Source: Anaerolineales bacterium
GTDB taxonomy: Bacteria > Chloroflexota > Anaerolineae > Anaerolineales > UBA4823
DNA length: 64,000 nucleotides
Direction: 5' to 3'
NCBI GenBank assembly: GCA_027494035.1
Contig: JAOSJQ010000001.1
Location: 3,040,796-3,104,795, forward strand
The position numbers and the translations under genes were made by a program. Positions 1 through 18,622 of this stretch are shown here, piece by piece; the first letter of the stretch is position 1; every line of letters starts with the position of its first letter. The notes under the pieces were generated by a model, which saw only the letters and a list, made by a program, of their open reading frames with translations, ran no database searches and was not told the DNA's origin.

Positions 1-1318
1 CGATCGTTTTGGCTGAACCAAGCAGGATCGCGCGCACGGCGTCGGCTTCGGTGACGAGTTCGCATTCGCAGATCAATTTCCCATAGCTTTGATCTTGCTC
101 GACCTCTGCCAGGCGGTGACCGGCGGTTAATGAGGAGTGAACCGAGCGCGCTTTGGGCGCGCCGCCCGGTGCATCCGGGAGGACCTCTAGGTGGGTGCGG
201 CAGGAGCGGGGCGAACGCAGTTTCTGGCAGACCAGGTCGACTGTTGCCTCCGCCATTTTGCGATAGGTAGTCCATTTTCCGCCAGTGATGGTGATCATCC
301 CTGGCGTTTGATCTCTTTGTTCGTGATCGAGCAGAACGAAGGCGCGCGTGACATCGCGGGTGTCGTCCACCGAGGCGTCTTGATACAGCGGGCGGACGCC
401 CGCCCAGGCGCGCAGCACGCGCATCTGCTTGAACCCGGGCACGAGCTTTTCGCCCTCGTCGAGCATCAACTCCACTTCCCAGGGTTCGATCGCAAAATGG
501 TCAGGGTCTGCGACCTTGACGTCGGTCGTGCCGATGACCGCGACAGTGTGGGCTGGCACCAGGATATCGCCGTCCGAGGGGAATTTACAGCGGTTGATCA
601 CCGTGTTGACAATGCGATGGTTGAGCGCCAGCATCGTGCCTTTGCCGGGGATCACGGGCGCTTCCAGACCCGCCAGGCGGGCGATTTTTCCCGCCCAGGC
701 GCCGCAGGCGTTGACCACAATCTCCGCTCGGATTTCAACCGTCTCGGCGCCAACCAGGTCCTCGCACAGCGCGCCGACGATCCGGTCGTCCGCGCGCAGC
801 AGGGCGGCGACTTTGTGATAGTTCAATATCCGCGCGCCGTGCTCCTGCGCAGAGACGGCGTTGAGTTCGGCTGCCAGGAATGAATCCGCCGAACCGTCGG
901 GGACGCGGAAACAGCGCGCGATGCGCGGGTTCAGCAGCGGTTCCTCGCGCAGCATCTGGGCGATGCTGAGTTCCTCCACGGGTATGCCGACAGTCCGGCA
1001 GCCTGCCAGGAATTGGGGCGCATAGTCCGGGTCGTCGTGTTCGGTCAGGACGAAAAATCCGCCCGTGTCCTCGATGCACTGCGGCATGATCTGGCGCAGG
1101 ATGCGGTTCTCGGCGATGCATTCTCGGGCGGCTTGCGGATCGCGGACGACGTAGCGCCCGCCGCTGTGCAGCAAGCCGTGGTAGCGCCCGGTCGTGCCGC
1201 GGGTAAGATCGCCTTTTTCGACCAGCACGGCTTTGAACCCGCGCATTGCGAGGTCGCGGACGACGCCGGTTCCGGTGGCGCCGCCGCCGATCACTAATGC
1301 TTCAGTTTCGATTATCAT
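1..1318 (-). CDS. glpA: anaerobic glycerol-3-phosphate dehydrogenase subunit A (FAD); 3' end cut by left window edge
   Basis: Absent from the ORF track because it runs off the edge. Hand translation of the minus strand from ATG 1318 gives MIIETEALVIGGGATGTGVVRDL (GxGxxG), RGTTGRYHGLLHSGGRY, KGTMLALNHRIVNTVINRCKFPSDGDILVP, ITITGGKWTTYRKMAE and LICECELVTEADA. These parallel E. coli GlpA as I remember it. The + strand ORFs 191..883, 429..818 and 1013..1297 are antisense shadows. Confidence 0.85.
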   Translation of the reverse strand, partial: MIIETEALVIGGGATGTGVVRDLAMRGFKAVLVEKGDLTRGTTGRYHGLLHSGGRYVVRDPQAARECIAENRILRQIMPQCIEDTGGFFVLTEHDDPDYAPQFLAGCRTVGIPVEELSIAQMLREEPLLNPRIARCFRVPDGSADSFLAAELNAVSAQEHGARILNYHKVAALLRADDRIVGALCEDLVGAETVEIRAEIVVNACGAWAGKIARLAGLEAPVIPGKGTMLALNHRIVNTVINRCKFPSDGDILVPAHTVAVIGTTDVKVADPDHFAIEPWEVELMLDEGEKLVPGFKQMRVLRAWAGVRPLYQDASVDDTRDVTRAFVLLDHEQRDQTPGMITITGGKWTTYRKMAEATVDLVCQKLRSPRSCRTHLEVLPDAPGGAPKARSVHSSLTAGHRLAEVEQDQSYGKLICECELVTEADAVRAILLGSAKTI

Positions 1319-1359
1319 GCACGGTTTCCAGGTTGTGACGCGAAACCAATTTTACCGTT

Positions 1360-2871
1360 TTATTCGACCCAATCCAGCGTGCGTTGGACCGCCTTTTTCC
1401 ATTCGCGGAACAGACGGGCGCGTTCGCGCTGGTCCATTTGGGGCTGCCAGGTTTTATCGATCTGCCAGTTGGCGCGCAGGTCTTTCGGCTCGCTCCAGTA
1501 GCCGACTGCCAGACCGGCAGCGTAAGCCGCCCCGAGGGCGGTGGTCTCGGTGACCCGCGGGCGCAGGACGGGTACATTGAGGATATCGGATTGAAACTGC
1601 ATCAGCAGGTCGTTGTTGACCATCCCGCCGTCCACCTTTAGGGCGCTCAATTCCACGCCTGAATCGGCTTTCATCGCGTCCAAGACTTCGCGGGTCTGAA
1701 AGGCGGTGGCTTCGAGAGCCGCGCGGGCGATATGACCCTTGTTGATATAGCGCGTCATCCCGACGATTGCGCCGCGCGCGTCCGATCTCCAGTAGGGCGC
1801 AAACAGCCCCGAAAACGCCGGTACGAAATATATTCCACCATTGTCTGCGACGGTTTTAGCAAGCTCCTCGACCTCGGAGGAGTGCTGGATCAATCCCAGG
1901 TTGTCGCGCAGCCACTGCACCAATGCGCCGGTGATGGCGATCGACCCTTCGAGCGCATAATTCGCCGGGCTGGCGCCGAATTTGTAGCCCAGCGTCGTGA
2001 GCAGCCCGCTTTTCGACGGGACGATTTTCATGCCGGTGTTCAGTAGCATAAAGCAGCCCGTTCCATAGGTGTTCTTGGCTTCACCCGGGCTGAAACAGGT
2101 CTGCCCGACCAGCGCCGCCTGCTGATCCCCCAGATCGCCGCAGACCGGGATCTCGGCGCCGAAGGGACCGCTGCGCACGGAATGCCCCCAGGTGTCCGGG
2201 TCGCTGGACGGTACGATGCGCGGCAGCAGCGCGCGCGGCAATTGCAGCGCGGCGGTCATTTCAGCATCCCATTCCAGGGTTTCGAGGTTCATCAACAGTG
2301 TGCGGCTGGCGTTGCTCACATCCGTGACATGCGCGCCGCCGTCGGAGCCGCCGGTGAGCCACCAGATCAGCCAGGTATCAATGGTACCGAAGAGCGCGTG
2401 ACCCGCTTCGGCAGCCTGGCGGACGCCGGGGATGTTCTCCAGAATCCAGAGCGCTTTGGGACCGGAAAAATAGGTTGCGATCGGCAAGCCGGTGATGCGG
2501 CGGAAGCGGTCCTGCCCGCCCGCGGCTGCCAGCCGGTCGCAGATTTCTTTTGTGCGCGTGTCTTGCCACACGATCGCGTTGTAGTAGGGCTTACCGGTGC
2601 GCTTATCCCAAATCAGCGTGGTCTCGCGTTGATTGGTTACCCCAATTGAAACGATCGCGGCCGGGTTCACCTGAGAGGCTGCAAGCACGTCGCGGATCAC
2701 TTGCTGCGTATTCTCCCAAATCTCCAGCGGATCGTGCTCAACCCAACCGGGCTGGGGATAGATTTGGCGGTGCTCTTTCTGGGCGATGCCGGCGACTGCG
2801 CCGGAATGGGTGAACAGCATGCAGCGCGTGCTGGTCGTGCCCTGGTCGATGGAGGCAACGAACGCGTTCAT
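1360..2871 (-). CDS. glpK: glycerol kinase
   Basis: 503 aa. FGGY kinase signatures: [14 protein letters not shown] at the N-terminus, [13 protein letters not shown], and length typical of GlpK. Lies directly downstream of glpA. Confidence 0.95.
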
Positions 2872-2921
2872 TTAGCCGACTCCTGAAGTGGGGTGGTTGG
2901 TTTAGCTATTATAAATTACAG

Positions 2922-3677
2922 TTATGCGCCGCTCAACGTGCGTTTCAGGAAGGCGAGGGTGATTTCATTCACTTGAGCCCGCTCCTGGTCGAGGATCACA
3001 CAATGCGTGGAGCGTTCCATCCAGTGGATTTCCACGACGGGCGACCTAACGTGCGCACGGATCATTTCCGGGGCGTCTGGATGGACGGTTTGATCCAGTT
3101 TCCCCTGGACGATCAGAAGCGGCTGACTGATCTGCTCCAGCCGGGGTTGGACGTAATTTTGGAGCTGCAACAACTGGATCACGCCGCGCAGCGGGTTCAC
3201 GCGGTACCCCTGCCACAGTTCGCTGCCTTCGTCCAGGTTGGGTTTGGGGAGCCAGGGGATGAATGGCGCGGCGAGGCGGATGCGCAGCGCGTCGAACGGG
3301 CGCATGTTCAAGCGCATAGCGGGCGCATACAAGAGCAGGGCGGCGATTTCAGGACGACGGACAGCCAATTCCAAAGCCAGTAAAGCGCCAGTCGATTCCC
3401 CGCCGGCAATAACGGTGGAGCAAACGGAAGCTAACCGGGTATAGGTTTCTTCGGTTTGGGCAGCCCAATCCTGCCAGCGCACCGCATTGAGATCCGCGGG
3501 CTGCGTGTAGTGACCAGGCAGCAGCGGCGCGGCGACGGTGTAGCCTGCGTCGTGCAGAAAAGCCGCTAGCGGACGGACCTCGGTGGCGGTCGCGGTCAAT
3601 CCATGAACAAGCAGGACGCCAATGGGTCCTGCTTGCCAGAAAAACGGGTCGCCTTGCAGATGCGGATTAAGGATCAT
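2922..3677 (-). CDS. alpha/beta-fold hydrolase (carboxylesterase / monoacylglycerol-lipase-like)
   Basis: 251 aa. LLVHGLTAT oxyanion region, GESTGA nucleophile elbow (GxSxG), and a C-terminal His region (ERSTHCV). Confidence 0.75.
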   Translation of the reverse strand: MILNPHLQGDPFFWQAGPIGVLLVHGLTATATEVRPLAAFLHDAGYTVAAPLLPGHYTQPADLNAVRWQDWAAQTEETYTRLASVCSTVIAGGESTGALLALELAVRRPEIAALLLYAPAMRLNMRPFDALRIRLAAPFIPWLPKPNLDEGSELWQGYRVNPLRGVIQLLQLQNYVQPRLEQISQPLLIVQGKLDQTVHPDAPEMIRAHVRSPVVEIHWMERSTHCVILDQERAQVNEITLAFLKRTLSGA

Positions 3678-3682
3678 CTATA

Positions 3683-5002
3683 TCAATGGGTGATGCGCGG
3701 ACCTACCCAAACCGCGGCGTTCTCGTCCGACTTGTTGTTGGCGCGCACTCTAAAGATGAAAGACACATATTGACCATTCAAGCCCAGGCTGCTCAGGTTG
3801 AGATCGATGTTAATCAGCGAGCCGGTGTAGGTTTTATCGAAAACTACGGAATCCTCGGAGACGCGGGTGTTCGGGGGCGCGATTACACGGTACACCAGTT
3901 CGAACGTGACATCGCACTTGTTCGCTCCGCTGCGGCAGCCGATCTGGGATACAAAGTGATCTCCGCTGAAGACGAGCATCGCCGGGAAGATCCCCTGGGT
4001 AATCCCGCCAGGCGCCCGCGGCGGGTTGGTCCATATGCCTCTGAAGCCAACGATCTGACCCGATTCCATGTTGGGGTTGTTCACCTGACGGACAAAACCT
4101 ACCGGAGCGCCGGTTTTTCCGTCGCAGCGGAGGTTGGTGACCAGATTTTTTTCTATGCGGATGGTGTTGCGAACCACACGCGCGTTGCTCTGATATTCGG
4201 CGTTGCAGATCTGGGCGGCGAAATCGTAAACCACGTTGGGCGGCGAATTGGAAACGTTCACGTTAACGCGGAACGGCTTCGAGCCATTGTCGCCAAAGTT
4301 TTCCTTGCCCGCGGTGAAGATCCATTCGCCGGTGAAGTTGCCCTCGGCGCTGGGGGTCAGCAGATTCACTGCCAGGTCGATCGTTTTTCCAGGCTGGACG
4401 CGCCCCGGCAAATTAATTGGGCTGCCGAAGAGCGGATCATGCTTGCCCACCGGGCGGAAGACAATTTTGGAATCCCAGGTGCAGGAGCCAGTGTTTTGGA
4501 CGCGCCAGACTTTCACAAAGCTGCGGTTGGTGGGCAGAAACTGCCCATTCGGGATCGTGACGTGCCGCACCAGGCGCGCTGCCAGGCAGGGCACAACGGC
4601 GCCACCGCCGCCGCCTCCTCCGCCGCCGCCCCCACCGCCGCCGCCCCCGCCGCCCGGAATCCAGGGTGTTACGCTTGGAATAAGGGTCGCGGTGTGGGTC
4701 GGCTCAGGCGTGTTGGTTGGGATTGCCGTCAGCATGGGGACCGGGGTGCTGGAGGCGGTCGGGGTGTTTGTGATGGTTGGCGTTTCAGATGGGATCGGAG
4801 TGTCGGTAGGCGGCGCCGGGGAGCTCGTCGGCGTTGCGGAAAGCGCCGCGACGGTTCGCATTACGACGAGGGTGCGTTCTGCCAGGGTCTCGGCAGCCCC
4901 GGGCGCGCTCGGGACGGACGGCGCGGTTGAGATTCCACAAGCAATGACTGCCAGCAGGGTGATTGCCGAGATCAGCGCCAGACGAGTGTTTTGTGTGTTC
5001 AT
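3683..5002 (-). CDS. secreted lipoprotein: PT-rich linker, poly-Gly tract, NBR1-FW (N_BRCA1_IG-like) domain and an unknown ~200-aa C-terminal domain
   Basis: Signal peptide with lipobox (LLAVIAC), T/P-rich linker and an 18-Gly run. The FW-like core follows: CLAARLVRHVTIPNGQFLPTNRSFVKVWRVQNTGSCTWD...GKTIDLAVNLLTPSAEGNFTGEWIF. It matches the human NBR1 FW pattern (F..D...G..L.PG..F.K.WR..N.G...W). Confidence 0.8.
   Translation of the reverse strand: MNTQNTRLALISAITLLAVIACGISTAPSVPSAPGAAETLAERTLVVMRTVAALSATPTSSPAPPTDTPIPSETPTITNTPTASSTPVPMLTAIPTNTPEPTHTATLIPSVTPWIPGGGGGGGGGGGGGGGGGGAVVPCLAARLVRHVTIPNGQFLPTNRSFVKVWRVQNTGSCTWDSKIVFRPVGKHDPLFGSPINLPGRVQPGKTIDLAVNLLTPSAEGNFTGEWIFTAGKENFGDNGSKPFRVNVNVSNSPPNVVYDFAAQICNAEYQSNARVVRNTIRIEKNLVTNLRCDGKTGAPVGFVRQVNNPNMESGQIVGFRGIWTNPPRAPGGITQGIFPAMLVFSGDHFVSQIGCRSGANKCDVTFELVYRVIAPPNTRVSEDSVVFDKTYTGSLINIDLNLSSLGLNGQYVSFIFRVRANNKSDENAAVWVGPRITH
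4601..4654 (-). repeat. GCC/GCC-like triplet tract (18 consecutive Gly codons on the coding strand)
   Basis: The + strand reads gcc acc gcc gcc gcc tcc tcc gcc gcc gcc ccc acc gcc gcc gcc ccc gcc gcc. It is in frame with the 3683..5002 ORF (reverse complement GGN x18). Confidence 0.9.
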
Positions 5003-5043
5003 GGATCCTCCAGCCCTCTTGTTCGTTACACCTTTAGTATAGA

Positions 5044-5078
5044 CAAAAATCTTCCCAACTGCAAGGGGTAGTTGGGAA
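5044..5078 (-). terminator. intrinsic terminator downstream of the 5143..5838 gene
   Basis: 8-bp stem tcccaact (5053-5060) / agttggga (5070-5077). On the minus strand it is followed by AGATTTTTGT. Confidence 0.6.
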
Positions 5079-5142
5079 AATTTTTGTAAAAATTTTTAAG
5101 TTTGTAAAACCGATTTCACGAATCGTCTTTTTGGCACTGTGC

Positions 5143-5838
5143 TCAGCCGGGGGTCGGTTTTGGCGTGGGTTTGATTTGGATCACCACTGAGAGAGGCTGC
5201 GCGCCATCAACGCCAAGCCCGAATAAGTTGCCTGCGGGATCGCTCAGCACCCAGTAGCCGGTCGAACTCGTTATCCCGCTGGGGGCGACCAAGTCGAGCC
5301 GGATTTCCACGGTTTCGCCCGGGTTAACCGGGTGGGGCAGTTGGATCTGGGCGGGTCCGTTCATTTCATCGCCGGAGTAGAAACGCAGCGAATAGGCTTC
5401 GCTCCAGACACAGCCGCTGGTGTTCTTAACCAGCCAGATCTTCGCAAACGGCTGTCCTGCCTGGAGAGCGGTGTTGTCGGAAATGGACAGGTGGCGGACA
5501 AATTCGGCTGAGTTGGCGCAGGCTGGCGCGGCGGTCGCCTCCGGGGATTGCGCGGTTTCCGCGGAATTGTTCACCGGCGTGTGGGTGGGAGGCAGATTTA
5601 CATGAACGGTAGGCGCAGGAGGCTGAGTAGGTGCGGGGGTGGGCGTGAAATTCACCGCTGGCAGGTCCAGCCTGAGCATGCGCACAACGATCGGAGTGGC
5701 GATCATTTGCGCGGAAGCCGAATTTGAAGCGCTGGGACTTCCTGTCGAAGCGCAACCTGCCAGGATAACCGCGCTCAGCGCCCAAGCCAGGCGCAGGATG
5801 TTTTTTTGGATCATATTCTCGCTCGCTGACTGGCGCAA
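5143..5838 (-). CDS. secreted lipoprotein with NBR1-FW domain (paralog 2)
   Basis: Lipobox AVILAGCAST and a P/T-rich linker, then CANSAEFVRHLSISDNTALQAGQPFAKIWLVKNTSGCVWSEAYSLRF...VNPGETVEIRLDLVAPSGITSSTGYWVLSDPAGNLFG. The true start may be the internal Met (MIQKNIL, about 5814). Confidence 0.85.
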   Translation of the reverse strand: MRQSASENMIQKNILRLAWALSAVILAGCASTGSPSASNSASAQMIATPIVVRMLRLDLPAVNFTPTPAPTQPPAPTVHVNLPPTHTPVNNSAETAQSPEATAAPACANSAEFVRHLSISDNTALQAGQPFAKIWLVKNTSGCVWSEAYSLRFYSGDEMNGPAQIQLPHPVNPGETVEIRLDLVAPSGITSSTGYWVLSDPAGNLFGLGVDGAQPLSVVIQIKPTPKPTPG

Positions 5839-5858
5839 CGCGCCAGAAGGTTGGCTTA

Positions 5859-6494
5859 TCAGCCGCAGGAGAGGGTCTCCAGCAGGCGCTTATTAAACTT
5901 GAGCGGTTCGACCACAACAACGGCTGAAAAAGGTTGGTCGGCTGCCGCGCCGGCGCCAAACGTATTTCCAGCGGGATCTTTTAGCATCCAGTAACTGGAA
6001 TAGGTATTGGGCTCCATGGGCGTGACCATCGTCACTTGAACGTCGACCGTCTCGCCGGGTTTTACCTCGTGAGTCAGCATGGTCTCGGAAACAGAGCTGA
6101 AATTGTCGCCGTTGTTGAAGACAAACGCGTAATCGGTGGTCCAGGTGCACGTCCCGATATTTTTGATGCGCCAGACTTTGGCAAAATAAACCCCGGGCAG
6201 CAGTTGGGTGTTATCCGACACGGACAGGTGGCGCACAAACTCTGCCTGGTTGGTGCACGCCTGAATGGTCGGGCTGGGCGGAACCGGGGAGGCAGGCACT
6301 TCAGTTGCCGGCGGTTTTTGCGTGCTGGTCGGCGTAGGGGTGGGGACGCTCGTGTTGGTGGGTAAGGGCGTATGGGTCGGCAAAGCTGGGGAACTGGTTG
6401 CCGTGAATTGAAGCGCAGCCGGGTTAGTTTGCTTCGGGGAGGCGCAAGACGCAAGTAAAATCAGACACACCAATAAGAGTGTAACTCGTTTCAT
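5859..6494 (-). CDS. secreted lipoprotein with NBR1-FW domain (paralog 3)
   Basis: Track ORF 5859..6593 trimmed to ATG 6494 (MKRVTLLLVCLILLASCASP), which is preceded by AAGGA. Core: CTNQAEFVRHLSVSDNTQLLPGVYFAKVWRIKNIGTCTWTTDYAFVF...VKPGETVDVQVTMVTPMEPNTYSSYWMLKDPAGNTFG. Confidence 0.85.
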   Translation of the reverse strand: MKRVTLLLVCLILLASCASPKQTNPAALQFTATSSPALPTHTPLPTNTSVPTPTPTSTQKPPATEVPASPVPPSPTIQACTNQAEFVRHLSVSDNTQLLPGVYFAKVWRIKNIGTCTWTTDYAFVFNNGDNFSSVSETMLTHEVKPGETVDVQVTMVTPMEPNTYSSYWMLKDPAGNTFGAGAAADQPFSAVVVVEPLKFNKRLLETLSCG

Positions 6495-6555
6495 AACCTT
6501 ATCCTTCTTTACCAGTTTTAGTCGCCGGCGATCCACGCCAGCCAGGTTATTTCTT

Positions 6556-7296
6556 TCAACCCCCGCCGCCGCAGATGCCAAAGACCTGCCCAAGCCCGTC
6601 GAGGCCTTGCAGGCGCCCTACGGCGACCGCCACCCAGATGAAGTTATTGGGCCCGGAGCTGGTCCCGAACTGTTCCCCCTCTTCGTTCTCGAACATCCAG
6701 TTTCCCTGATAAACGCCTTTAACGGTTGGCGCAACCAGGTCGACCGAGATGTTGACCATCTCGCCCGGCGGCACTTCGAGACCGATCGGTTTTGGCGAGA
6801 GACCGCCCATGCGATCGCCAAAGGTGAACACGAGCGTGTAATTCGGCGTCCAGACGCAGGTCCCGCTGTTGAGCATCCGCCAGACTTTGGTGAACCGCTG
6901 ACCCGGTTTCACTTCGGTCAAATCCGGGAAGGATATATCGGCGACGAACTGCGCTTTGTTCTTGCAGAGGTCGGCGTACTCATAAGAATCAAGGCTGCGA
7001 TCGAGGGGCGTCAACGACGGCGCCGGCGTTGCGCTGGGGTACGGCTGTGGCTGCTCAATTGAATTGCTGAGATGGACTTCATCAAAAACGGCAACCAGCT
7101 CGGGCTCGGGCGACGGCGTTGCGGTTGCAAAATAACTCACGCCTTGCTGGGCAACCAGCGTGCGCACGGCGAGGGTATGTGCCAGACCGGGGACTTCAGA
7201 TGGCTGCGGGCGGCTGGAGCAGGCGCTGGATAATACCACTAAGACGATTGCGGTGACGATAAGTCTGGATCTCGTGATCATGCTATTCTTCCTCAA
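6556..7296 (-). CDS. secreted (lipo)protein with NBR1-FW domain (paralog 4)
   Basis: Signal anchor IVTAIVLVVLSSACSS. Core: CKNKAQFVADISFPDLTEVKPGQRFTKVWRMLNSGTCVWTPNYTLVF...VPPGEMVNISVDLVAPTVKGVYQGNWMFENEEGEQFG. Confidence 0.85.
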   Translation of the reverse strand: MRKNSMITRSRLIVTAIVLVVLSSACSSRPQPSEVPGLAHTLAVRTLVAQQGVSYFATATPSPEPELVAVFDEVHLSNSIEQPQPYPSATPAPSLTPLDRSLDSYEYADLCKNKAQFVADISFPDLTEVKPGQRFTKVWRMLNSGTCVWTPNYTLVFTFGDRMGGLSPKPIGLEVPPGEMVNISVDLVAPTVKGVYQGNWMFENEEGEQFGTSSGPNNFIWVAVAVGRLQGLDGLGQVFGICGGGG

Positions 7297-7377
7297 AACT
7301 GCCTTGAGCGGTGAGCCGGTAATTGCAAGTGATTTATCTTTCCGAGATCAAAGTTGAGTATATCAGATAATTTGCAA

Positions 7378-7417
7378 TTAAAACAGGTATCCATTTTACA
7401 AAGGATACCTGTTTTAT
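7378..7417 (-). terminator. intrinsic terminator after fdhA (hairpin looks terminator-like on both strands)
   Basis: 11-bp perfect stem aacaggtatcc (7382-7392) / ggatacctgtt (7403-7413). The minus strand continues TTTTAATTG and the plus strand continues TTATCCGTTTTT. Confidence 0.6.
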
Positions 7418-7444
7418 CCGTTTTTACCGGTTGAAATTGTAAGC

Positions 7445-10204
7445 TTAATCCAGCGCTTCAACCCGCACTGCACAGATCTTGTATTCCGGGATCTTGGCAA
7501 CCGGATCGAGCGCCGCAATCGTCAACTCGTTGGCGGATGATTCAGGAAAGTGAAAGTTGGAGAAAATCATCCCCGTTGGAACCCGGTCAGTGATCCAGGC
7601 GTGGGCTTCAATGCTGCCCCGGCGTGAGCTGACGCGGACGCGGCGTTTGCCGTTCAGCCCCAGCATGCGCGCGTCCTCGGGATTAATCTCGATTTTTGCG
7701 TGACTGTAGATCTCGAGCAAGCCTGCGGATCTGCGGGTCATCTCGCCGCCGTGCCAGTGATACAGAACGCGCCCGGTGTTGAGCAGCATGGGATAAGCTT
7801 CGTCCGGCAGTTCGGCTGGCGGGACGTGCTCGACCGGCATGAAATGACCCTTGCCGCGCGTGAACTGTCCGACATGCAGGATCGGCGTGCCGGGGTGTTC
7901 GGCGTCTTTGACGGGCCAGTGCAGCCCGGCGGGGTCGCGTTCGAGGCGGGCGTGCGATACGCCAGCGTAGCTGGGTGTCAGCGCCGCCACCTCGTCCATG
8001 ATCTGGGAAGTGTTTTCGTATTCCCAGCCGGAATAGGGCGCGGGTTGAACCTGGCGCGCGCCCTGGGCGAGCACCCGGCGCGCGATTTCCGCGATGATCC
8101 ACCAATCCGGGCGCGCCTCTCCCGGCGGAGATATCGCCTGGTGGACCATCTGGACGCGGCGCTCGGTGTTGGTAAATGTGCCCGATTTTTCGGCGAAGCT
8201 TGCGCCAGGCAGCAAGATATCGGCATACGGCGAGGTCTCAGAGGGGAAGATCTCCTGCAGGATCACCAGGTCGCACTCTTCCATGCACTTGCGGATGTGG
8301 CTGCTGTTGGGGTCGCTCACTATCGGGTCTTCGCCCAGGACGTAGAGGGCGTGAATCTTGTCCTCTTCGATCCCAGGGATCATTTCGGTCACCGTCATTC
8401 CCACGGTTTGAGATAGCTGGGCGCCCCAGGCAGCTTCGAACTTCTCCCGGCTGGCGTCCAGTGTGACGTTCTGATACCCGGAATAGACGTTGGGCAGCCC
8501 GCCCATATCGCAGGCGCCCTGCACGTTGTTCTGACCGCGCAGAGGGTTGACGCCCCCGCCCGGAACTCCGAGGTTGCCCAGCATCATTTGTAGGTTTGCC
8601 AGGTCCATCACGTTGTTGACGCCGACGATGTGCTGGGTGATCCCCATTGCCCACATGACTGCCATAGGCTTGTTGGTCGCCAGGATCTCCGCCGCTTCGT
8701 AGAGCTTTTCGAGCGGGATGCCGGTGAGCTGCGCCACGTGCTCCGGAGTGTAGTGTTCGAGCGTTTGGCGCACTTCATCGAAGCCCTCGGTGCGGTTGAG
8801 GATAAAATCGCGATCCTCCCAGCCTTTTTCGAGGATGATGTTCATCAGCCCGTTGACCAGCGGGATATCGGTGCCCGGTCTGAGCTGTAAGTGCAGCGTC
8901 GCAAATTCGGTGATGTCGATTTTGCGCGGGTCCGCGACGACGAGCTTTACCCCGCGATGCATGACTGCCTGACGGATCATCGTGCCAAACACGGGATGTT
9001 GTTCAGTGGTGTTCGAGCCGATGATCAGCATTGCTTTCGCATGTGAAGCGATATCTGCCATCGTGTTGGTCATTGCGCCAGAGCCAAAGGAAGCCGCCAG
9101 ACCGGCGACCGTGCTGGAGTGTCAGAGACGGGCGCAGTGATCGATATTATTCGTGCCAATGACTTGCCGGGCAAACTTATTGAACAGATAATTTTCTTCG
9201 TTGAGGCATTTGGCTGAACACAATATCCCCAGGCTGTTTGAACCGTAGATATCGCGGCAGGCGCTCAGCTTTGCTGCGGTGAGGTCCAGCGCGGTATCCC
9301 AGTCCACCGTGACCCACTCGCCGCGACCCGGCGGGCGCGGCGTGCCATCTAAGAGATATTTGCGCACCTGCGGCTGGGTCAGGCGGTCGGGGTGATGGAT
9401 GAAATCGTATCCGTAACGTCCCTTGACGCAGAGGCGCATGCCGTTGACGGCGGCGTCGGAGTTGGAGGTGACCCGAATGACCTTGTCGTCTTTCACGTTG
9501 AGTTCGAGCTGGCATCCAACCCCGCAGTAGGTGCAGGTTGTAGTCACCTTGCGATCCGCCGCGCCGAGGTGCAGCGACATTTTGTTGTTGAGCGCGCCGG
9601 TGGGGCAGTACGCTACGCACGCGCCGCACGATTCGCAGCGCGCGTCCAGCATGGTGGTACCCGCCCCGGCGACCACCTGCGTGTGTGCGCCGCGCGCGGC
9701 CAGGCTCCAGACGAAGCGACCCTGCACATCAGCGCAGGCGCGAATACAGCGCGTGCACAGAATGCATTTATTCATATCCACCCAGACGAAGGGGTTGGGG
9801 TCGCTGTCGACGCGATAACGGGGCTGTTTTGCCATTGCCTGCTCAAGGTCGATGTGATAATGCTCAGCCCAATGCAGCAGTTCATTTGACCCGCCGAGCC
9901 CGTCTTCATAGCCTTGATCGTAATAATCCGACAGGAGCAATTCCAAGATGCCGCGGCGCGCTTCCGCCAGCGCCGGGTTTTCGGTAATCACTTCCATATC
10001 CTGGCTGACCGGCAGCGCGCAAGACGCCATGGGCAGGCGGTAGCCTTTCACTTCCACCACACACAAGCGGCAGCCACCGTAGGGCGTCAGATCGGGATGG
10101 TCGCACAGGGTTGGAATGGTGATGCCCGCAGCTTCCGCGGCGCGCAGGACGGTGGTGTTCTCTGGGACTTCAACGGTTTTACCGTCAATTTTCAAGGTTA
10201 TCAT
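7445..10204 (-). CDS. fdhA: formate dehydrogenase catalytic (alpha) subunit, selenocysteine-containing; single gene read through TGA at 9122..9124
   Basis: Track ORFs 9122..10204 and 7445..9073 are in the same frame. The junction reads ...[33 protein letters not shown]..., which matches the E. coli FdhF Sec site (CCARV-U-HGPSVAGL..[8 protein letters not shown]). The N-terminus has 2Fe-2S and 4Fe-4S Cys clusters, then TTCTYCGVGC (molybdopterin 4Fe-4S). The C-terminal half is a molybdopterin oxidoreductase. Confidence 0.9.
9093..9124 (-). promoter_or_regulatory. Sec codon (UGA 9124..9122) plus SECIS-like hairpin
   Basis: The mRNA reads UGA CAC UCC AGC ACG GUCGCC-GGUCU-GGCGGC. This is a 6-bp stem (one G-U pair) with a GGUCU loop starting 18 nt after the UGA. 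E. coli fdhF SECIS has the same loop sequence and spacing (..GUUGCA GGUCU GCAC..). Confidence 0.75.
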
Positions 10205-10271
10205 GTATCAGCGCTCCTTAATCATCTTTCATACCAGGGTATCAACCTCAATTTGTGTGAACAACGCGCGC

Positions 10272-11954
10272 TCACGCGGATGCCAGCGGCTGCATTTCCT
10301 CCGCCGCGGGGGCCTCGACCCGCATCGGGCAGACGCCGGTCGGACACACCCCCAACTGGATGTGGGCTTCCACTTCGGTCCTGAAGTGTTTGAGCATGTC
10401 ACGGATCGGCACTGCGGCGGTCTGACCCAAGCCGCAGTTTGAAAGCCTTACCATTTGATCCGCCAGCTTTAACAACTCGTCCAGGGCGTCAAGCTCCGCC
10501 TGTCCTTGAGTGATGCGCGTGAGAATTTCATAGCTGCGCTGGGTACCGATGCGGCAGGGGGTGCATTTGCCGCAGCTTTCAAAACGGAAGAAGTTGAGCA
10601 GCACTTTTACCAGGTCCACTACACAGGTGTTTTCGTCGGCGATCAGCAGCGCGCCCGAGCCGAGCGAAACGCCGGCTTTGCGCGTGGCTGCGAAATCCAG
10701 CGGCGTGTCTTGCAGGCTGGCGGGGATCAGCGAACCGCTCGAGCCTCCCGTCTGCGCCAATTTGAACGCTGCCCCGTTTTTCATCCCCTTGGCGTAGATG
10801 CTAATCGCTTCCCGGAGCGTAATCCCCATCGGGACTTCGAACACGCCGGTCAGGTTGACATTTCCGAAGATGGTGTAGACTTTCGTCCCCGGGCTGCTGG
10901 GGGTTCCAAATTTTTTGTACCATTCGCCGCTCCGCCGCAGGATCGGCGGAACGTTTGCCAGCGTCTCGACGTTGTTCACCAGCGTGGGGCAGCCCCACAG
11001 CCCATGCGTGGTAGGGTAGGGGGGACGCGAGCGCGGTTCGCCGCGCTTGCCTTCGATCGATTCGATCAGCGCGGTTTCCTCGCCGCAGACGTAAGCGCCG
11101 GCGCCGGAGTGGATGTGCAGGTGGAAGCTGAAATCCGTGCCCAGGATATGCTCGCCGAGCAAGCCCAACGCTTGCGCCTGCTCGATCGCCTTTTGGAAGC
11201 GCTGCTGCGCCAGTTGATACTCTCCCCGAATGTAGATAAAGCCTTCGTCAGCGCCGATTGCATAAGCCGCCAGCGCCATAGCTTCGACGATCGAATGGGG
11301 GTCGCTTTCCAGGATCACCCGGTCTTTGTAGGTGCCCGGTTCGCTTTCGTCGGCGTTGCAGATCACGTATTTTTTGCTCCCGGACGTGGAGGCGACGATC
11401 TCCCATTTTTTGCCCGTCGGAAAGCCCGCGCCGCCGCGCCCCTGTAAGCCTGAAATCGTCAGTTCTTCAATCACCTGGGCGGGCGTCATCTGCGTCAACG
11501 CTTTTGTCAGCGCTTGATAGCCGTCGTAGATGATGTAATCCTCGATGCTTTCCGGGTCGATCCGCCCGGCGCGTTCCAGCACAATGCGCTGCGCTGCCGG
11601 CAGCGCGCCGGAGCGCGCCGCCAGCCAGGCGATTCGTCCGGTGAGCTGGTGTTTTGGGACGATCATCTCCTCGATGACGCGACCCTGCGACAGATGTTCT
11701 TTCACGATCCGTCCGGCGTCCGCAGGATGGACGGGTCCATACACGACGGCTTCGGGGTAGATGATGACCAGCGGTAATAAGTTTTTGGCGCCCACGTCCA
11801 CAATCGTGTTGAGATCCACTTCGTTTGCCAACCCACAGCGGTCAATTTCAGTCCGAAGCGCTTGCAGCAGTTCCTGGCTGCCCAGCCGGCGGCTTTCCGA
11901 GTCGTCAGATACGAGAACCAGCGCACGTTTATTGATCACCTTTACCTCCATCAT
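10272..11954 (-). CDS. NAD(H)-binding flavoprotein subunit of formate dehydrogenase (NuoF/FdsB-like) with a Cys-less thioredoxin-like N-terminal domain
   Basis: 560 aa. GLQGRGGAGFPTGKKW (FMN/NADH site) and ESCGKCTPCR (4Fe-4S). Its start overlaps the upstream stop as ATGA (11951-11954). Confidence 0.9.
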   Translation of the reverse strand: MMEVKVINKRALVLVSDDSESRRLGSQELLQALRTEIDRCGLANEVDLNTIVDVGAKNLLPLVIIYPEAVVYGPVHPADAGRIVKEHLSQGRVIEEMIVPKHQLTGRIAWLAARSGALPAAQRIVLERAGRIDPESIEDYIIYDGYQALTKALTQMTPAQVIEELTISGLQGRGGAGFPTGKKWEIVASTSGSKKYVICNADESEPGTYKDRVILESDPHSIVEAMALAAYAIGADEGFIYIRGEYQLAQQRFQKAIEQAQALGLLGEHILGTDFSFHLHIHSGAGAYVCGEETALIESIEGKRGEPRSRPPYPTTHGLWGCPTLVNNVETLANVPPILRRSGEWYKKFGTPSSPGTKVYTIFGNVNLTGVFEVPMGITLREAISIYAKGMKNGAAFKLAQTGGSSGSLIPASLQDTPLDFAATRKAGVSLGSGALLIADENTCVVDLVKVLLNFFRFESCGKCTPCRIGTQRSYEILTRITQGQAELDALDELLKLADQMVRLSNCGLGQTAAVPIRDMLKHFRTEVEAHIQLGVCPTGVCPMRVEAPAAEEMQPLASA

Positions 11955-12448
11955 TCGTATCTCGACAGGATTTCCGGCAGCCGTTCGGGTGTGACATTGC
12001 CGTACATATCTTCGTCGATCACAACTACCGGTCCGACCCCGCAGGCGCCGAGGCAGCTAGTGGTCACCAGCGACCACTTTCCGTCGGGGCTGGTTTCGCC
12101 GGCGCTCAGCGAGAGCTGCTCCTGTAAAGCCTGCCAGACCGCCCTTCCGCCGGTCACGTGGCAGGGCGCGCTTTCGCAAAACAACACAATGTGCCGGCCG
12201 CGCGCTTTGAGCGACAGCATATGATAGAAAGACGCCAGCGAGAAGAGATGCCCCTCTTGAATGAGCCGGTCTCCGACCGGCGCGTTGAGATGCTTTTTGA
12301 TCTCGGTCAGCGCTTTGACCGGGATGTACCCATACTCCTGGTTGACCTCCAGCAAGATGGGGATAAGCGCATCGGGCGAAGTGCCGTGTTTTTCGATTGC
12401 CAGGCGCGCCATTTCTTTGTATCCGTTATCCGTTGTATGAGCGCTCAT
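11951..12448 (-). CDS. NuoE/FdsG-like [2Fe-2S] thioredoxin-like ferredoxin subunit
   Basis: 165 aa. CESAPCHVTGG ... CLGACGVGPVVVID, the NuoE 2Fe-2S ligand pattern. Confidence 0.85.
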   Translation of the reverse strand: MSAHTTDNGYKEMARLAIEKHGTSPDALIPILLEVNQEYGYIPVKALTEIKKHLNAPVGDRLIQEGHLFSLASFYHMLSLKARGRHIVLFCESAPCHVTGGRAVWQALQEQLSLSAGETSPDGKWSLVTTSCLGACGVGPVVVIDEDMYGNVTPERLPEILSRYE

Positions 12449-12481
12449 TTAGCCTCCTGAATGACCAAGTTTCCGCCGCGC

Positions 12482-12886
12482 CTAACCGAGTTGGGCGAGC
12501 AGCTGCTCGATCCGATATTCTTCCACAACCTTACCGCCCAGCAGGTGTTCGGTGAGGATGCGTTCGGCGACCGCCTCCGTCACCTTTCCGTACGTCACCT
12601 CCGGGTTGCCGCCGATTACGACCCGCACGATTGGCTCCAGCGAGTCGTAACCGATGTTTGCCGTCTGCTGGACGTGGACGTGCTCGAGTTTGCGCGCGGC
12701 GACGTAATCCAGGATCGTTTTCAGCGTCCTGGAAGCGCCTGAGGCGAGCGCGGGCGTGCTCAGATCGACGGTCATCCAGGCATCCCCGGTTTCTGCCTGG
12801 CGTTGTTTATTTTGCAGGGCTGCCTGACGCAATTGATCGAGGTCAGCCAGGGATTTTATCGTTGTCATTTCACACTCCGTGTTCAC
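12482..12886 (-). CDS. small thioredoxin-like-ferredoxin-fold protein lacking the Cys ligands (HndB / HymB-N-terminal-like)
   Basis: The pattern ...MTVDLSTPALASGASRTLKTILDYV...EPIVRVVIGGNPEVTYGKVTEAVAERILTEHLLGGKVVEEY resembles Trx-like 2Fe-2S domains, but the cluster cysteines are absent. The likely true start is ATG 12868 (MTTIKSL), which has GGAG 7 nt upstream. Confidence 0.5.
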   Translation of the reverse strand: MNTECEMTTIKSLADLDQLRQAALQNKQRQAETGDAWMTVDLSTPALASGASRTLKTILDYVAARKLEHVHVQQTANIGYDSLEPIVRVVIGGNPEVTYGKVTEAVAERILTEHLLGGKVVEEYRIEQLLAQLG

Positions 12887-13024
12887 CTAGATCAGATAAA
12901 CTGGATGATAAAGACTGCGCATAATAGAATTTGCCAGGAATAGTATAACCATTCCTGGCAATAATCCTATGTGCTAAATGTCACTATCTGGGTAGGGAGT
13001 TATCCAGATATCTGTGTGATGATC

Positions 13025-13873
13025 TTAATTGGATGCGGACGGGCTGGTTTGCCCGAGGCGAATTTCTATTCCAGCCGGATCGTTCATTGAGGGGAGGACG
13101 ATCCGCTCGGGATGGGCGTAGATCCTGAAGCGCTCGCGGCTGGCGTAGCCGATCAGCGTTATTCCGTGTTTCTCCGCCAGGGCAATCGAGAGCGAGCTGG
13201 GCGAGGTGCGCGACAGCACAATCTCTGCCCCGATGCGGTGCGCTTTTTGGAGCATTTCCGAGCTCACGCGCCCGGTGGTCAGCAGGATGCTTGGGTCGGG
13301 ATCGAGGTTGTCCAGCAGGCACTTGCCGGCAATTTTATCGAGAGTGTTGTGCCGCCCGATGTCTTCCGCCATGACGTTGAGACCTTTGTGGTTGGTCAGC
13401 ACCGAGGTGTGAACGCCGCCGGTTTTCTGGTACAGGTCCTGCGAAATAAGCAAACGGCTGACCAGTTCTCTAACCTGTCTGGCGTCCAGAAGCAGCCCGT
13501 TGTGCGGCTGGGTGAGCGCGGAAGGCGCCAGCAGATTTTCCGGCGATATGGAGGTCACGCCGCCGGTGCAGCCCGAGGTCTTGCGCCAGTTGTCGGGTTT
13601 TTCGACTGAATGATTGAGCCATACATCGATGTTATCGCCCGTGGGACACAGGCGTACGTCGGCAATCGCGCTGGTGGACTGGATCACCCCTTCGTTGTAG
13701 AGGAAGCCCACCGCGAGCGCCGGCAGATCTACGGGGGTGCACATAAACGTCAACCAGACTTCGCCATTTACCGTCAGGGAAACGGGCGTTTCCACGATGA
13801 TCTCGGCATGATGGATCGCCCATTTGTTGGCATCCACCAGTAAATAAGAGATAGGTTCGTTTGGGAGGGTCAT
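13025..13873 (-). CDS. fdhD: formate dehydrogenase accessory sulfurtransferase FdhD
   Basis: 282 aa. KTSGCTGG active-site loop and EDIGRHNTLDKIAGK (FdhD hallmark). Sits at the head of the fdh cluster. Confidence 0.9.
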   Translation of the reverse strand: MTLPNEPISYLLVDANKWAIHHAEIIVETPVSLTVNGEVWLTFMCTPVDLPALAVGFLYNEGVIQSTSAIADVRLCPTGDNIDVWLNHSVEKPDNWRKTSGCTGGVTSISPENLLAPSALTQPHNGLLLDARQVRELVSRLLISQDLYQKTGGVHTSVLTNHKGLNVMAEDIGRHNTLDKIAGKCLLDNLDPDPSILLTTGRVSSEMLQKAHRIGAEIVLSRTSPSSLSIALAEKHGITLIGYASRERFRIYAHPERIVLPSMNDPAGIEIRLGQTSPSASN

Positions 13874-14010
13874 TTCAATACCATTAGAGAGAATGTCGGT
13901 TCGATTCGTTTACTTCGCGTCTCGGGCTTATTGTAACCGGTTTCTGCAAATATGCAAAAGCCGTGGATTTGTTATAATCAGGGGGATAGATCACGCGTTG
14001 GGAGGCAGTT

Positions 14011-14814
14011 ATGAAGCGTTATTTTTTCAAACCGGGGACTAAGATTAACCTGGCTGATTGGGACCCGAACGAGACCGCCGAATTCGACGGCGGTAAGAAC
14101 GCCAGCAAGAACGCGTTGGAAAAATTAAACCAGGAGCTCGAGCCGCTGCAAGAGCTGCTCTACGCCGAGCACAAACACAAAGTGTTGGTGATCCTGCAAG
14201 GGATGGACACCTCCGGTAAGGACGGGGTGATTCGCCACGTATTTGAGGGCGTGAACCCGCAGGGGGTCAGGGTGGCGAGCTTCAAAGTGCCTACGCCGAT
14301 CGAGCTCGCGCACGATTATTTATGGCGCGTCCACCAGCAAACGCCTGGAAATGGCGAAATGGTGATCTTCAACCGCAGTCATTACGAAGACGTTCTGGTA
14401 GTGCGGGTGCATGAGTTGGTCCCGAAGTCCGTTTGGCAGAAACGATACCGCCAGATCAACGAGTTCGAGCGAATCCTGGCTGACGAAGGCACGTTGATCC
14501 TGAAGTTTTACCTGCACATCGATTTGGATGAACAGAAACGGCGGCTGCAAGCCCGGCTGGACGACTCACAAAAACAGTGGAAGTTCAGCGTTGGAGATCT
14601 CAAGGAGCGTCAGTTTTGGCCTCAATATACGCGGGCTTACGAGGAAGCCCTGACCCGCACCAACACGAGTTGGGCGCCCTGGGTGATCGTGCCGGCAAAC
14701 CGCAAGTGGTACCGCAACCTGGTGATCGGCACGATCCTGGTGAAAGCGCTGCAATCCTTGAAGATGAAGCTGCCCGCATTTGACGGAGACCCAAAAGAAA
14801 TCACGATCGAATAG
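14011..14814 (+). CDS. ppk2: polyphosphate kinase 2 family protein (polyphosphate:nucleotide phosphotransferase)
   Basis: 267 aa. Walker A VILQGMDTSGKDG and single-domain PPK2 length. GGGAGG lies upstream of ATG 14011. Confidence 0.85.
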   Translation: MKRYFFKPGTKINLADWDPNETAEFDGGKNASKNALEKLNQELEPLQELLYAEHKHKVLVILQGMDTSGKDGVIRHVFEGVNPQGVRVASFKVPTPIELAHDYLWRVHQQTPGNGEMVIFNRSHYEDVLVVRVHELVPKSVWQKRYRQINEFERILADEGTLILKFYLHIDLDEQKRRLQARLDDSQKQWKFSVGDLKERQFWPQYTRAYEEALTRTNTSWAPWVIVPANRKWYRNLVIGTILVKALQSLKMKLPAFDGDPKEITIE

Positions 14815-14834
14815 TCCGTGCATTCCCGCAAGCA

Positions 14835-14877
14835 TAAAAAAGCCGCCCGGCGAAGCGCGCTGGACGGCTTTTGGTTT
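14835..14877. terminator. bidirectional intrinsic terminator between convergent ppk2 and the 14897..16216 gene
   Basis: 12-bp stem agccgcccggcg (14841-52) / cgctggacggct (14858-69) with one mismatch. Flanked by AAAAAA upstream and TTTTGGTTT downstream. Confidence 0.75.
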
Positions 14878-14896
14878 CAGGGATGCGCACCCAGAC

Positions 14897-16216
14897 TCAG
14901 CGGATGACCCACCCGGCGATTTCGTCCACCGCGACCGAGAAGTTCGCGGCGGATTCGGCGCGGATCGCCAACCCATACAAACCGCCCGAATATGTCCCGT
15001 CGGTGAACGAATAGAGCAGGGTGTTGTTGGCGTAAAACTGGAACTCCGCGCCCACGGCTGAGATACCCATCACATTGGTCTGGTTGGCGCCGGGGTGGAT
15101 GGCGGGATTGGTGGTCCAGTTTTGGATGTTGTTGAAATTTCCGTTGTCCATGCGGTAGACGCGATATTTTCCATCGCAGGAGAAGCTGAACACATAGCCC
15201 GAATTGATATTTCCATCTGGCTTGGAGGGCGCTCGCACGAGCATCCCGTAGCCGTCTTTTCCGTTACAGATGCTGCCTGGCATGAAGATCGTCTGCAGAT
15301 AGAAGTTATCCAGGAAGGAAGCCTGAGCAACCCGCCACTGGTCGCCGGTCGGTTTGAGCGCCGTGATCACCAGCTTCCCGTCTGCGATGTTGTAATTCAT
15401 GCCCGAGTCGGTGCCCAGGAAGAACGGACTGCGATCCGAGCCAAAGCCCACGGTCCAAGAAGGGTCGCCGAGGTTCTGCGGGCGGCTGACCGATGGCGAA
15501 CCGGCGGTCGGGTTGACGGTGGGGTTGGCGCCCTGAACGACCTGGATTTTGACCCAAAAAGGCGTTTTGGCGTCGCTGCCCAGCCCGAACTCGACGCCGT
15601 CGGTCGAGCGCAGCATCCAATCGCCCTGGAAGACGCCGGGGTTGGCGGGCGCTGTTTGGGGCAGAAAGATCTGCAGGGTATTTCCGGGCGGCACGGTCTG
15701 ACCGATGGGAACCGGGCTGGTACCGGACATCCGCTCGCCCCCGATGGAGACCAGCGAATAGGCGGGGTTCCAAACGCAGGTGCCGACGTTGCGCAGCGTC
15801 CAGGTCTTGATAAATTCCTGGTTGGGACCGAAGATCGAGAGATCCGGCACGGTTTCCTCTACCAGTTTTGCCAGATTAACGCAGCCGGGCAGGCTGGTCG
15901 CCGGCGGGGTGACGATCGTCGCTGCCTCGGTAGGGGCGGGGGTTGGCTGAACCTCGCTGGGCGGGACGGGGGTTGCTTCCGCGGTCGGGATTGCGGTGGC
16001 AGGCGGAACCTCCGTGGGCGCCGGCTGGGCGGTGGCGGTCAAGAATAGGTTGACCGCCATGGCGGTTTTGGTCTGGGCGACGATGGTATCCAGGTCGGGT
16101 CCGGCGGGTTTGCCGGGCAGGTTGCACGCAGAAAGGAGGATTGCGGCGAGAAGCAGGGTCGCAAGCGCTGACGCAAGCGGTTTGGGATTTATATGGGGTC
16201 TCATCAGTCTCTCCAT
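14897..16216 (-). CDS. secreted lipoprotein: NBR1-FW domain (paralog 5) fused to a C-terminal concanavalin/LamG-like (DUF1080-like) domain
   Basis: Lipobox AAILLSACN and a PT linker, then CVNLAKLVEETVPDLSIFGPNQEFIKTWTLRNVGTCVWNPAYSLVS...VPPGNTLQIFLPQTAPANPGVFQGDWMLRSTDGVEFG. The C-terminal ~190 aa (..GYGMLVRA..GYVFSFSCDGKYRVYR..GLYGLAIRAES..) looks like a jelly-roll lectin fold. The likely start is ATG 16204 (MRPHIN), preceded by GGAGAG. Confidence 0.75.
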   Translation of the reverse strand: MERLMRPHINPKPLASALATLLLAAILLSACNLPGKPAGPDLDTIVAQTKTAMAVNLFLTATAQPAPTEVPPATAIPTAEATPVPPSEVQPTPAPTEAATIVTPPATSLPGCVNLAKLVEETVPDLSIFGPNQEFIKTWTLRNVGTCVWNPAYSLVSIGGERMSGTSPVPIGQTVPPGNTLQIFLPQTAPANPGVFQGDWMLRSTDGVEFGLGSDAKTPFWVKIQVVQGANPTVNPTAGSPSVSRPQNLGDPSWTVGFGSDRSPFFLGTDSGMNYNIADGKLVITALKPTGDQWRVAQASFLDNFYLQTIFMPGSICNGKDGYGMLVRAPSKPDGNINSGYVFSFSCDGKYRVYRMDNGNFNNIQNWTTNPAIHPGANQTNVMGISAVGAEFQFYANNTLLYSFTDGTYSGGLYGLAIRAESAANFSVAVDEIAGWVIR

Positions 16217-16264
16217 TTTTTCTTGCTTTATTTATTGCAACGAGACAGCTCGAACAGCCGAAAT

Positions 16265-16320
16265 GCAGCGCATTGAAATAGGCGCACTTTAGTGCAGCGC
16301 ACTTCGATGCGGCGCATTTT
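16265..16320. repeat. four direct repeats containing GCGCA at 14-15 bp spacing, in the promoter region of the 14897..16216 gene
   Basis: gcagcgcatt (16268), ggcgcacttt (16282), gcagcgcactt (16297), gcggcgcatttt (16312). On the minus strand these read AA(G)TGCGCY and lie about 50-110 nt upstream of the start codon. Confidence 0.6.
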
Positions 16321-16372
16321 GTTGAGGGTAAGACGCCGAACGAGCTTGCCGGGTTCCGCGCTCGACGGCGGC

Positions 16373-17245: not shown

Positions 17246-17252
17246 TTCGGGT

Positions 17253-18524: not shown

Positions 18525-18558
18525 AGTCCAACGGACAGTCCAGCGGACAGCTCAACGG
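18523..18558. repeat. three tandem 12-mers (acagtccaacgg / acagtccagcgg / acagctcaacgg)
   Basis: Read directly from the sequence. They sit immediately upstream of the MFS start codon on the minus strand. A 10-bp-stem hairpin follows: ctcaacggcg (18551-60) / cgccgttgag (18574-83). Confidence 0.8.
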
Positions 18559-18622
18559 CGCCGTCAGCGACGACGCCGTTGAGAAATTATACACGATGAT
18601 CTTTCTTTAGCCTGAGTCGACG

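Follow-up and report, generated by a model that had tools for sequence, protein, structure and literature searches.

The hallmark of NBR1, the prototype of selective-autophagy receptors, is its FW domain, whose mode of ligand recognition was solved in 2022 for one fungal cargo: the FW domain of Chaetomium Nbr1 binds the N-terminal Gly-Gly of Ams1 (Zhang et al. 2022, PMC9233695). The pocket is formed by F651, D654, D658, W672 and W763, and it was proposed to represent a general FW binding mode (PMC9233695). The eukaryotic carriers of the domain, NBR1 and ILRUN (4OLE, 6VHI and 7VQO), are cytosolic autophagy or signalling proteins in which FW is accompanied by PB1, ZZ, LIR and UBA. In 2012, FW domains were reported from bacteria, Chloroflexi among them, together with the argument that they are ancient (Marchbank et al. 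2012, PMC3357945), and reviews have repeated this (PMC9582228); the bacterial XRE-FW proteins have a helix-turn-helix and end in the same domain (PMC3357945). Here, we have analyzed a stretch of 64,000 nucleotides from an Anaerolineales bacterium (contig JAOSJQ010000001.1 of assembly GCA_027494035.1; hereafter the window, within which all positions are numbered), in which a tandem array of four genes (A, B, C and D) and a fifth, separate gene (E) encode predicted lipoproteins with FW domains. In our judgment it is reasonably probable that A-E are non-enzymatic, lipid-anchored binding proteins of the cell envelope, composed of FW heads and, in two of them, lectin-like domains.

By sequence comparison, the heads of all five proteins are shown to be FW (NBR1/ILRUN-type) Ig-like domains. 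Their scores against PF16158 (N_BRCA1_IG; gathering cut-off 28 bits) were 81.9 bits for A, 83.4 for B, 68.3 for C, 56.3 for D and 72.5 for E, and no other Pfam family reached its curated cut-off in these proteins. A profile of A-D also matched the structures of ILRUN (6vhi, E 1.8e-17), human NBR1 (4ole, E 2e-15) and Chaetomium Nbr1 (7vqo, E 5.8e-9) in alignments of ∼97 residues, and the motifs F.K.W, N.G...W and G.W are common to the bacterial and eukaryotic domains. The Ig-like beta-sandwich of the window domains would follow from this homology to solved structures. Thus, the original prediction for this DNA, which had recognized the NBR1 FW domain from a motif, was correct in its assignment. 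Its term 'eukaryote-type', on the other hand, was misleading, as bacterial FW domains were described in 2012 (PMC3357945) and are named by NCBI: identical proteins in the metagenome-assembled genome (MAG) of Anaerolineae bacterium UTCFX2 are annotated either as hypothetical or as 'NBR1-Ig-like domain-containing protein'. The FW domain is therefore already known from Pfam and NCBI product names, and the locus is no new kind of system. The statement that the function of bacterial FW domains is uncharacterized agreed with our literature searches, which found no functional study of a bacterial member; they also found no description of the lipoprotein cassette, the Cys staple, the split between canonical and remodelled pockets, the module of FW with a CBM-like domain or the control element of gene D that are reported below.

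Judged by their domain content, the window proteins share one domain with NBR1 and are not NBR1 orthologs. A Pfam scan of the window FW proteins revealed no PB1, ZZ, LIR or UBA alongside FW; unlike NBR1 and ILRUN, they carry putative export and lipid-anchor signals. They also differ from XRE-FW proteins in being predicted lipoproteins with long linkers, and D and E carry another domain of 190-210 aa past FW. Weak NCBIfam matches to SslE, the Rcas_1661 lipoprotein and GltJ were far below cut-off and confined to the signal and linker segments, and were discarded as compositional. With regard to anti-phage defence, PADLOC gave zero matches. The FW family abounds in Anaerolineae: a scan of species-representative genomes made with homologs of the B lineage gave at least 564 confirmed matches. 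Among 80 loci examined in reference genomes, 14 had tandem runs of three or more FW genes.

The four consecutive minus-strand genes expected from the original prediction were all present: A (6556-7281), B (5859-6494), C (5143-5814) and D (3683-5002), which encode lipoprotein precursors of 241, 211, 223 and 439 aa, respectively. A hidden Markov model of their four domains, run against the window, identified E (14897-16216, minus strand, 439 aa) ∼7.6 kb from the array, with the same layout of signal, lipobox, linker, Cys and FW. The longest open reading frames (ORFs) overcalled the starts of A, B and C; the ATG codons at 7281, 6494 and 5814 are preferred, since each is preceded by a Shine-Dalgarno-like sequence and gives a normal lipoprotein signal peptide. 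Two plus-strand ORFs, 3686-4930 (414 aa) and 4236-5042 (268 aa), were rejected as antisense shadows of the GC-rich gene D, whose poly-Gly they read as poly-Pro.

Each of the five precursors has an n-region, an h-region and a lipobox Cys by pattern rules and inspection, and the predicted combination of a lipobox signal with a low-complexity Pro/Thr linker was thus found in all four genes of the array. Signals were judged by regular expressions; the strict pattern [LVI][ASTVI][GAS]C was matched by B (LASC), C (LAGC) and D (VIAC), and E (LSAC, Cys31) was assigned by inspection. The linkers span 84 aa in A, 62 aa in B (Pro/Thr), 77 aa in C, 116 aa in D and 80 aa in E, and 48-72% of the residues in these 62-116 aa are P, T, S, A or G. 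They lead to FW domains at aa 106-219 of A (nt 6625-6966), 80-195 of B (5910-6257), 99-214 of C (5173-5520), 139-250 of D (4253-4588) and 112-226 of E (15539-15883). As the original prediction had noted, D has a poly-Gly spacer and a C-terminal domain of about 200 aa (here 189 aa). The spacer consists of 18 Gly codons (GGN, 4601-4654) at the end of the linker, directly before FW, and a poly-Gly tract is kept in four of five orthologs (L001, with 17 Gly, L005, L009 and L018; such labels denote loci of relatives' genomes). Its position is curious in view of the specificity of the fungal pocket for N-terminal Gly-Gly. In addition, a segment PG.A.TLA.RTLV follows the lipobox in A (∼7150-7200) and D (∼4860-4920), and in looser form in E (∼16040-16100); it could be a membrane-proximal helix inside the low-complexity linker.

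A pair of Cys residues, 35-36 residues apart, was found in all five window FW domains. The first lies 5-6 residues ahead of the first strand (5-8 in the wider set), and the second lies within N.G.C.W. Among 173 evaluable Anaerolineae FW domains, 172 had both Cys, one had neither and none had one alone. The pair is absent from the cytosolic human NBR1 (4ole) and ILRUN (6vhi). This all-or-none occurrence makes a disulfide probable. In an FN3-type sandwich, the residues leading into strand A and those that open strand C are found at one and the same end, and a disulfide between the two Cys is therefore plausible. It appears that the FW domain is probably disulfide-stapled and extracytoplasmic.

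We also compared the Nbr1 pocket positions by residue identity across 175 Anaerolineae domains. The position of F651 was F in 149 of them, and is F in A, B and C and L in D and E. At D654, Asp was found in 148 domains; A has D, E has E, and B, C and D all have H. At D658, Asp occurred in 166 domains and in all window proteins except D, which has N. W672 was nearly universal (174 of 175, and W in A-E). The position of W763, the fourth Trp, was W in 111 domains, Y or F in 35 and S in 10; it is W in A and E, S in B and C, and R in D. A and E thus keep all four Trp, as in NBR1 and ILRUN, whereas B, C and D keep three and have also lost the acidic residue at +3. Considering that W was present in just 111 of the 175 domains, loss of the fourth Trp is common within the family. 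On the basis of these residues, the pocket is canonical in A, nearly so in E, and remodelled in B, C and D, being degenerate in D. The remodelling partly changes the charge, with Arg-His replacing Ala-Asp. The pocket positions ranked in the top 25 of ∼105 conserved columns. This is relevant to the idea that the FW domains are inert Ig-like spacers, such that binding would be left to the C-terminal jelly-rolls of D and E, with A, B and C serving as structural or space-filling stalks. Ig-like domains are often spacers in surface proteins, and tandem arrangements of FW with CARDB, fn3 and Big are seen in long relatives. However, stalks would not be expected to keep pocket residues, the variants themselves are invariant across orthologs (as is the His at +3 of B and C), and ratios of nonsynonymous to synonymous substitution (dN/dS) were as low as 0.08; we consider this idea very unlikely.

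The C-terminal domain of D, hereafter domain X (aa 251-439, nt 3686-4252, minus strand), is a 189-aa all-beta domain without significant sequence match in Pfam, NCBIfam or the Protein Data Bank (PDB; profile search E>0.6). A word-indexed search found four relatives, whereas an exhaustive HMMER search found 1056 cluster representatives at E<1e-3, 99 of them at E<1e-30; as the query held ∼45 FW positions, 1056 is an upper bound. Many of the relatives are proteins of 700-1500 aa with repeated modules. In the best 150 proteins, a profile restricted to domain X located 130 near-full domains, spread over 114 proteins, and an FW domain immediately preceded 114 of these 130 domains; FW followed by X was also the commonest architecture among the 80 loci (56 of 80). 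The AlphaFold2 model, based on a 30-sequence alignment, was all-beta and of high confidence (pLDDT 95, pTM 0.89), and domain X has four nearly invariant Cys. In Foldseek, 36 PDB structures matched at E<1e-3 with TM scores of 0.44-0.52, dominated by carbohydrate-binding modules (CBMs) of families 6, 11, 16, 22, 61, 4 and 51, the Fbs1 sugar-binding domain and tailspike lectin-like domains. According to the model, domain X is a CBM-like jelly-roll fold and represents a large family that lacks a Pfam or NCBIfam model and is thus a candidate for curation. It shares a fold class with CBM6/11/16/22/61 and Fbs1 (Foldseek probability ∼1.0), but has no sequence relationship to them, has four conserved Cys, nearly always follows FW and is not attached to a glycoside hydrolase. 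In 43 long relatives with the FW-X module, CARDB and SH3_3 were each found in eight, and fn3_5, DUF11, Big, PA14, galactose-binding-like, dockerin and cohesin domains also occurred, in keeping with an extracellular setting; VanY, in one protein, was the only catalytic family there.

The C-terminal domain of E (nt 14900-15538, minus strand) appears to be DUF1080/ConA-like by transitive homology only. All six homologs (48-59% identical) matched PF06439 (best E 8.7e-8), and two matched Laminin_G_3. The profile of this family also weakly matched levanase chains 4azz and 4b1l (E ∼0.06), which we take to be CBM66 modules; PF06439 (DUF1080/3-keto-disaccharide hydrolase) presumably includes CBM66. E differs from PF06439 in that its C-terminal domain is fused to a putatively lipoprotein-anchored FW. 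A relationship between domain X and the C-terminal domain of E was rejected by hhalign (probability 1.6%).

Based on these features, a binding role for A-E can be outlined. Chloroflexota are regarded as monoderm (PMC13319060), and in a monoderm-type envelope the proteins would be exported and then carry a lipid on the lipobox Cys that anchors them to the outer side of the cytoplasmic membrane. There, the Pro/Thr-rich linker of 60-115 aa would hold the binding head off the membrane, and an extracytoplasmic disulfide would staple the FW head. D and E would each add a lectin-like beta-jelly-roll (domain X and the DUF1080/ConA-like domain, respectively). Since A and E keep the acidic and aromatic Nbr1 pocket, their probable ligand is a peptide with a free amino terminus or an amine, and the remodelled pockets of B, C and D presumably accept other partners. 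Candidate ligands would be glycans of the envelope or matrix for the jelly-rolls, and peptide termini (of cell-wall peptides or partner proteins) for FW; for both types of domain, the binding function is inferred from sequence and fold. UTCFX2 comes from anammox granules (PMC5460018), and a granule or biofilm habitat fits the surface-binding reading.

It should be noted that several observations weigh against this interpretation. The lipobox of A (LSSAC, Cys21) passes only a relaxed PROSITE-type rule. Conservation of the pocket Asp residues at +3 and +8 could be structural, and the bacterial FW domains, unlike the eukaryotic ones, have an insertion of 6-8 residues before the fourth Trp, which may reshape the pocket. 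The TM scores of domain X are low, and 'carbohydrate-binding' would follow from its fold class rather than from sugar-binding residues. Finally, the C-terminus of the window E itself has no PF06439 match even at E≤10.

Thus, in Anaerolineae, FW appears to be above all an exported surface module, probably disulfide-stapled and with pocket residues largely kept, that is typically fused to a large family of CBM-like fold lacking a Pfam or NCBIfam model. Granules and sludge flocs abound in filamentous Anaerolineae, and for the biology of this group the FW proteins are candidate surface- or matrix-binding proteins. The locus also offers a tractable bacterial system in which to ask what the ancestral FW pocket recognizes.

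The age of the array was examined by comparing the window with relatives, of which L001 was the closest (proteins 72-88% identical). Its gene order is E-PPK2-FdhD-A-B-C-D-hydrolase-glpK. A-B-C-D occurred in the same order in L001, L005, L006 and L009 and partly in L004, L008 and L018; B is missing from L018 and an A-like gene was undetected in L008. In L001, L005, L006 and L009, the best match of each protein was its positional ortholog, with roughly 1.4- to 10-fold the bits of any paralog, and such 1:1 orthology extended across at least six Anaerolineae genomes, whose proteins are 40-88% identical. As paralog identity was 24-45%, dN/dS among paralogs would not be meaningful, and orthologs were used instead. 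The values were 0.08 for A, 0.14 for B, 0.21 for C, 0.11 for D and 0.13 for E, similar to those of housekeeping neighbours (0.07-0.19); ortholog identity was 88% for A and 84% for E. All five FW genes are under purifying selection. Gene E is also conserved beside PPK2 and FdhD in relatives. In L004, gene A (9509-9936), and in L009, the hydrolase (12737-13488), are split by frameshifts, which are probably MAG assembly errors rather than pseudogenes.

A-B-C-D is therefore a cassette of long standing whose members have differentiated, rather than the product of recent expansion. The original prediction of a 'locally expanded family' did not hold, as each paralog has a positional ortholog in the same order and orthologs were closer to each other than paralogs. 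It had also taken near-identical blocks in B and C as a sign of recent duplication. The block, AEFVRHLS[IV]SDNT, is real, but seven of its 39 nucleotides differ, and the motif, including its invariant His, is nearly unchanged in aligned B-like and C-like relatives, which argues for selection. That B and C were recently duplicated or have undergone gene conversion was rejected on account of these differences, the 45% identity of their FW domains and their separate orthologs.

The segments after FW were paralog-specific and conserved as well: A ends in ...C[GIV]GGG (...FGICGGGG in the window, conserved in six genomes), B in ...[SAP]CG (...ETLSCG; ET[LF][SAP]CG across seven relatives) and C in KPTPxPTPG (KPTPKPTPG, likewise conserved). 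The tails of A (6559-6624) and B (5862-5909) place a third, unpaired Cys at the extreme C-terminus, which is kept in orthologs down to ∼45% identity and may serve in intermolecular disulfides or as a recognition tag. Such features could suggest that A-B-C-D assemble as a hetero-oligomeric envelope structure, for example a scaffold in the multilayered wall or sheath of filamentous Anaerolineae, in which FW domains and tails make protein contacts and the tail Cys of both A and B engage in intermolecular disulfides. It would agree with the constant gene order and the 1:1 orthology, both retained despite deep divergence, the conserved tails with their unpaired Cys, the difference between the pocket of A and those of B, C and D, and the fact that eukaryotic FW domains are protein-binding modules (PMC9233695). 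However, co-inheritance is not strict, given the absence of B from L018 and of any detected A-like gene from L008, and D would be transcribed separately from A-B-C. We regard an assembly of this kind, which overlaps with the proposed binding role but would place the ligands inside the cassette, as possible but unlikely.

A more far-reaching interpretation, which we consider quite unlikely, is that the cargo-recognition domain of NBR1 is derived from, or works in the same way as, a bacterial module outside the cytoplasm that reads free peptide N-termini. With their canonical type of pocket, A and E would then dock oligoglycine or other free termini (such as cell-wall cross-bridge amines or a processed poly-Gly end of D), the remaining three proteins would recognize different ends, for which the Cys-Gly-Gly-Gly tail of A is a possible candidate, and together they might form a self-assembling surface complex displaying two new lectin-like domains.

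With regard to transcription, A-B-C would form a single unit, and a deeply conserved control region of its own precedes D. The boundary upstream of A (7355-7415, minus strand) comprises the terminator hairpin of a formate dehydrogenase operon (7380-7415) and then a promoter-like core, TGATATACT (7355-7365), which was conserved in five loci. The intergenic region of C and D contains an ultra-conserved non-coding block of ∼90 nt (5035-5124, minus strand), nearly invariant across loci whose proteins are 50-88% identical and far more conserved than the flanking coding sequence. It includes the palindrome CTGATTCGTGAAATCAG (6-5-6, 5110-5125), an A/T-rich stretch, a 9-bp inverted repeat with a T-run (5052-5078) and TTGCAG-17-TATACT, whose -10 element is at 5036-5041. 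The block was also found in L001, L005, L006, L009, L018 and L085-L089, and stood directly upstream of a D ortholog in 11 of 11 independent occurrences. It was rejected as a generic repeat, since it has a single copy in the window and always precedes D orthologs. Its inverted repeats were 94% paired with three double-sided changes. In five of the eight sequences, one stem position was not a standard pair, and the spacer of the promoter did not vary; a DNA operator/promoter is therefore no less likely than an RNA structure. The intergenic regions of window positions 1-20000, including this block, matched no Rfam family. Its motifs suggest that it is probably the terminator of A-B-C together with a regulated promoter/operator for D. 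The supplements of PMC5460018, which cover selected gene categories only, hold nothing on the expression of these FW genes.

The array is flanked upstream by an operon for NAD-dependent formate dehydrogenase and downstream by an alpha/beta-hydrolase gene (2922-3677, minus strand; matches to Hydrolase_4 and Abhydrolase_6) and glycerol kinase. The original prediction had noted a lipid/glycerol catabolic block next to the lipoproteins and suggested a ligand-capture or cell-surface recognition system. On this view, a captured ligand would feed the adjacent genes for the hydrolase, glycerol kinase (glpK) and a glycerol-3-phosphate dehydrogenase-like protein. The adjacency on which it was based is genuine and recurs in four relatives. 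The D stop codon lies 5 nt before the hydrolase start, a junction of 5-11 nt is also present in L001, L003, L006 and L009, and glpK lies further downstream in the window, L001, L006 and L009 (the L003 contig ends just past the hydrolase); the hydrolase is probably co-transcribed with D in the window genome. The proposed functional link fared less well. In L005 and L018, D is followed by an MFS transporter, and hydrolase and glpK are absent there. Among the 80 reference-genome loci, three had a glpK-like gene and one a full-length hydrolase homolog, and A-B-C would be a separate transcription unit. Moreover, inspection by eye revealed no obvious signal peptide in the hydrolase or GlpK, and no glycerol or lipid uptake system adjoins the cassette. 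The hydrolase is outside the conserved cassette. The formate dehydrogenase operon, equally unrelated, was found just upstream of the FW genes in six of seven syntenic genome types examined. Neither neighbour is obligatory, which makes the coupling to glycerol or lipid metabolism weak, and we consider ligand capture for these genes highly improbable.

In L001, the whole formate dehydrogenase operon is missing between FdhD and A (8990-9214; the window counterpart is 7297-13024). As the more distant L006, L009 and L018 do have it, its absence looks like a lineage-specific deletion or relocation. In the window, the gene for the formate dehydrogenase alpha subunit (7445-10204, minus strand) was represented by two ORFs that are one gene with an in-frame TGA (9122-9124). 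The classic CARL-U-HSSTVAGL context of this codon points to a selenocysteine-containing formate dehydrogenase, and a GC-rich hairpin candidate was observed 3' of the TGA.

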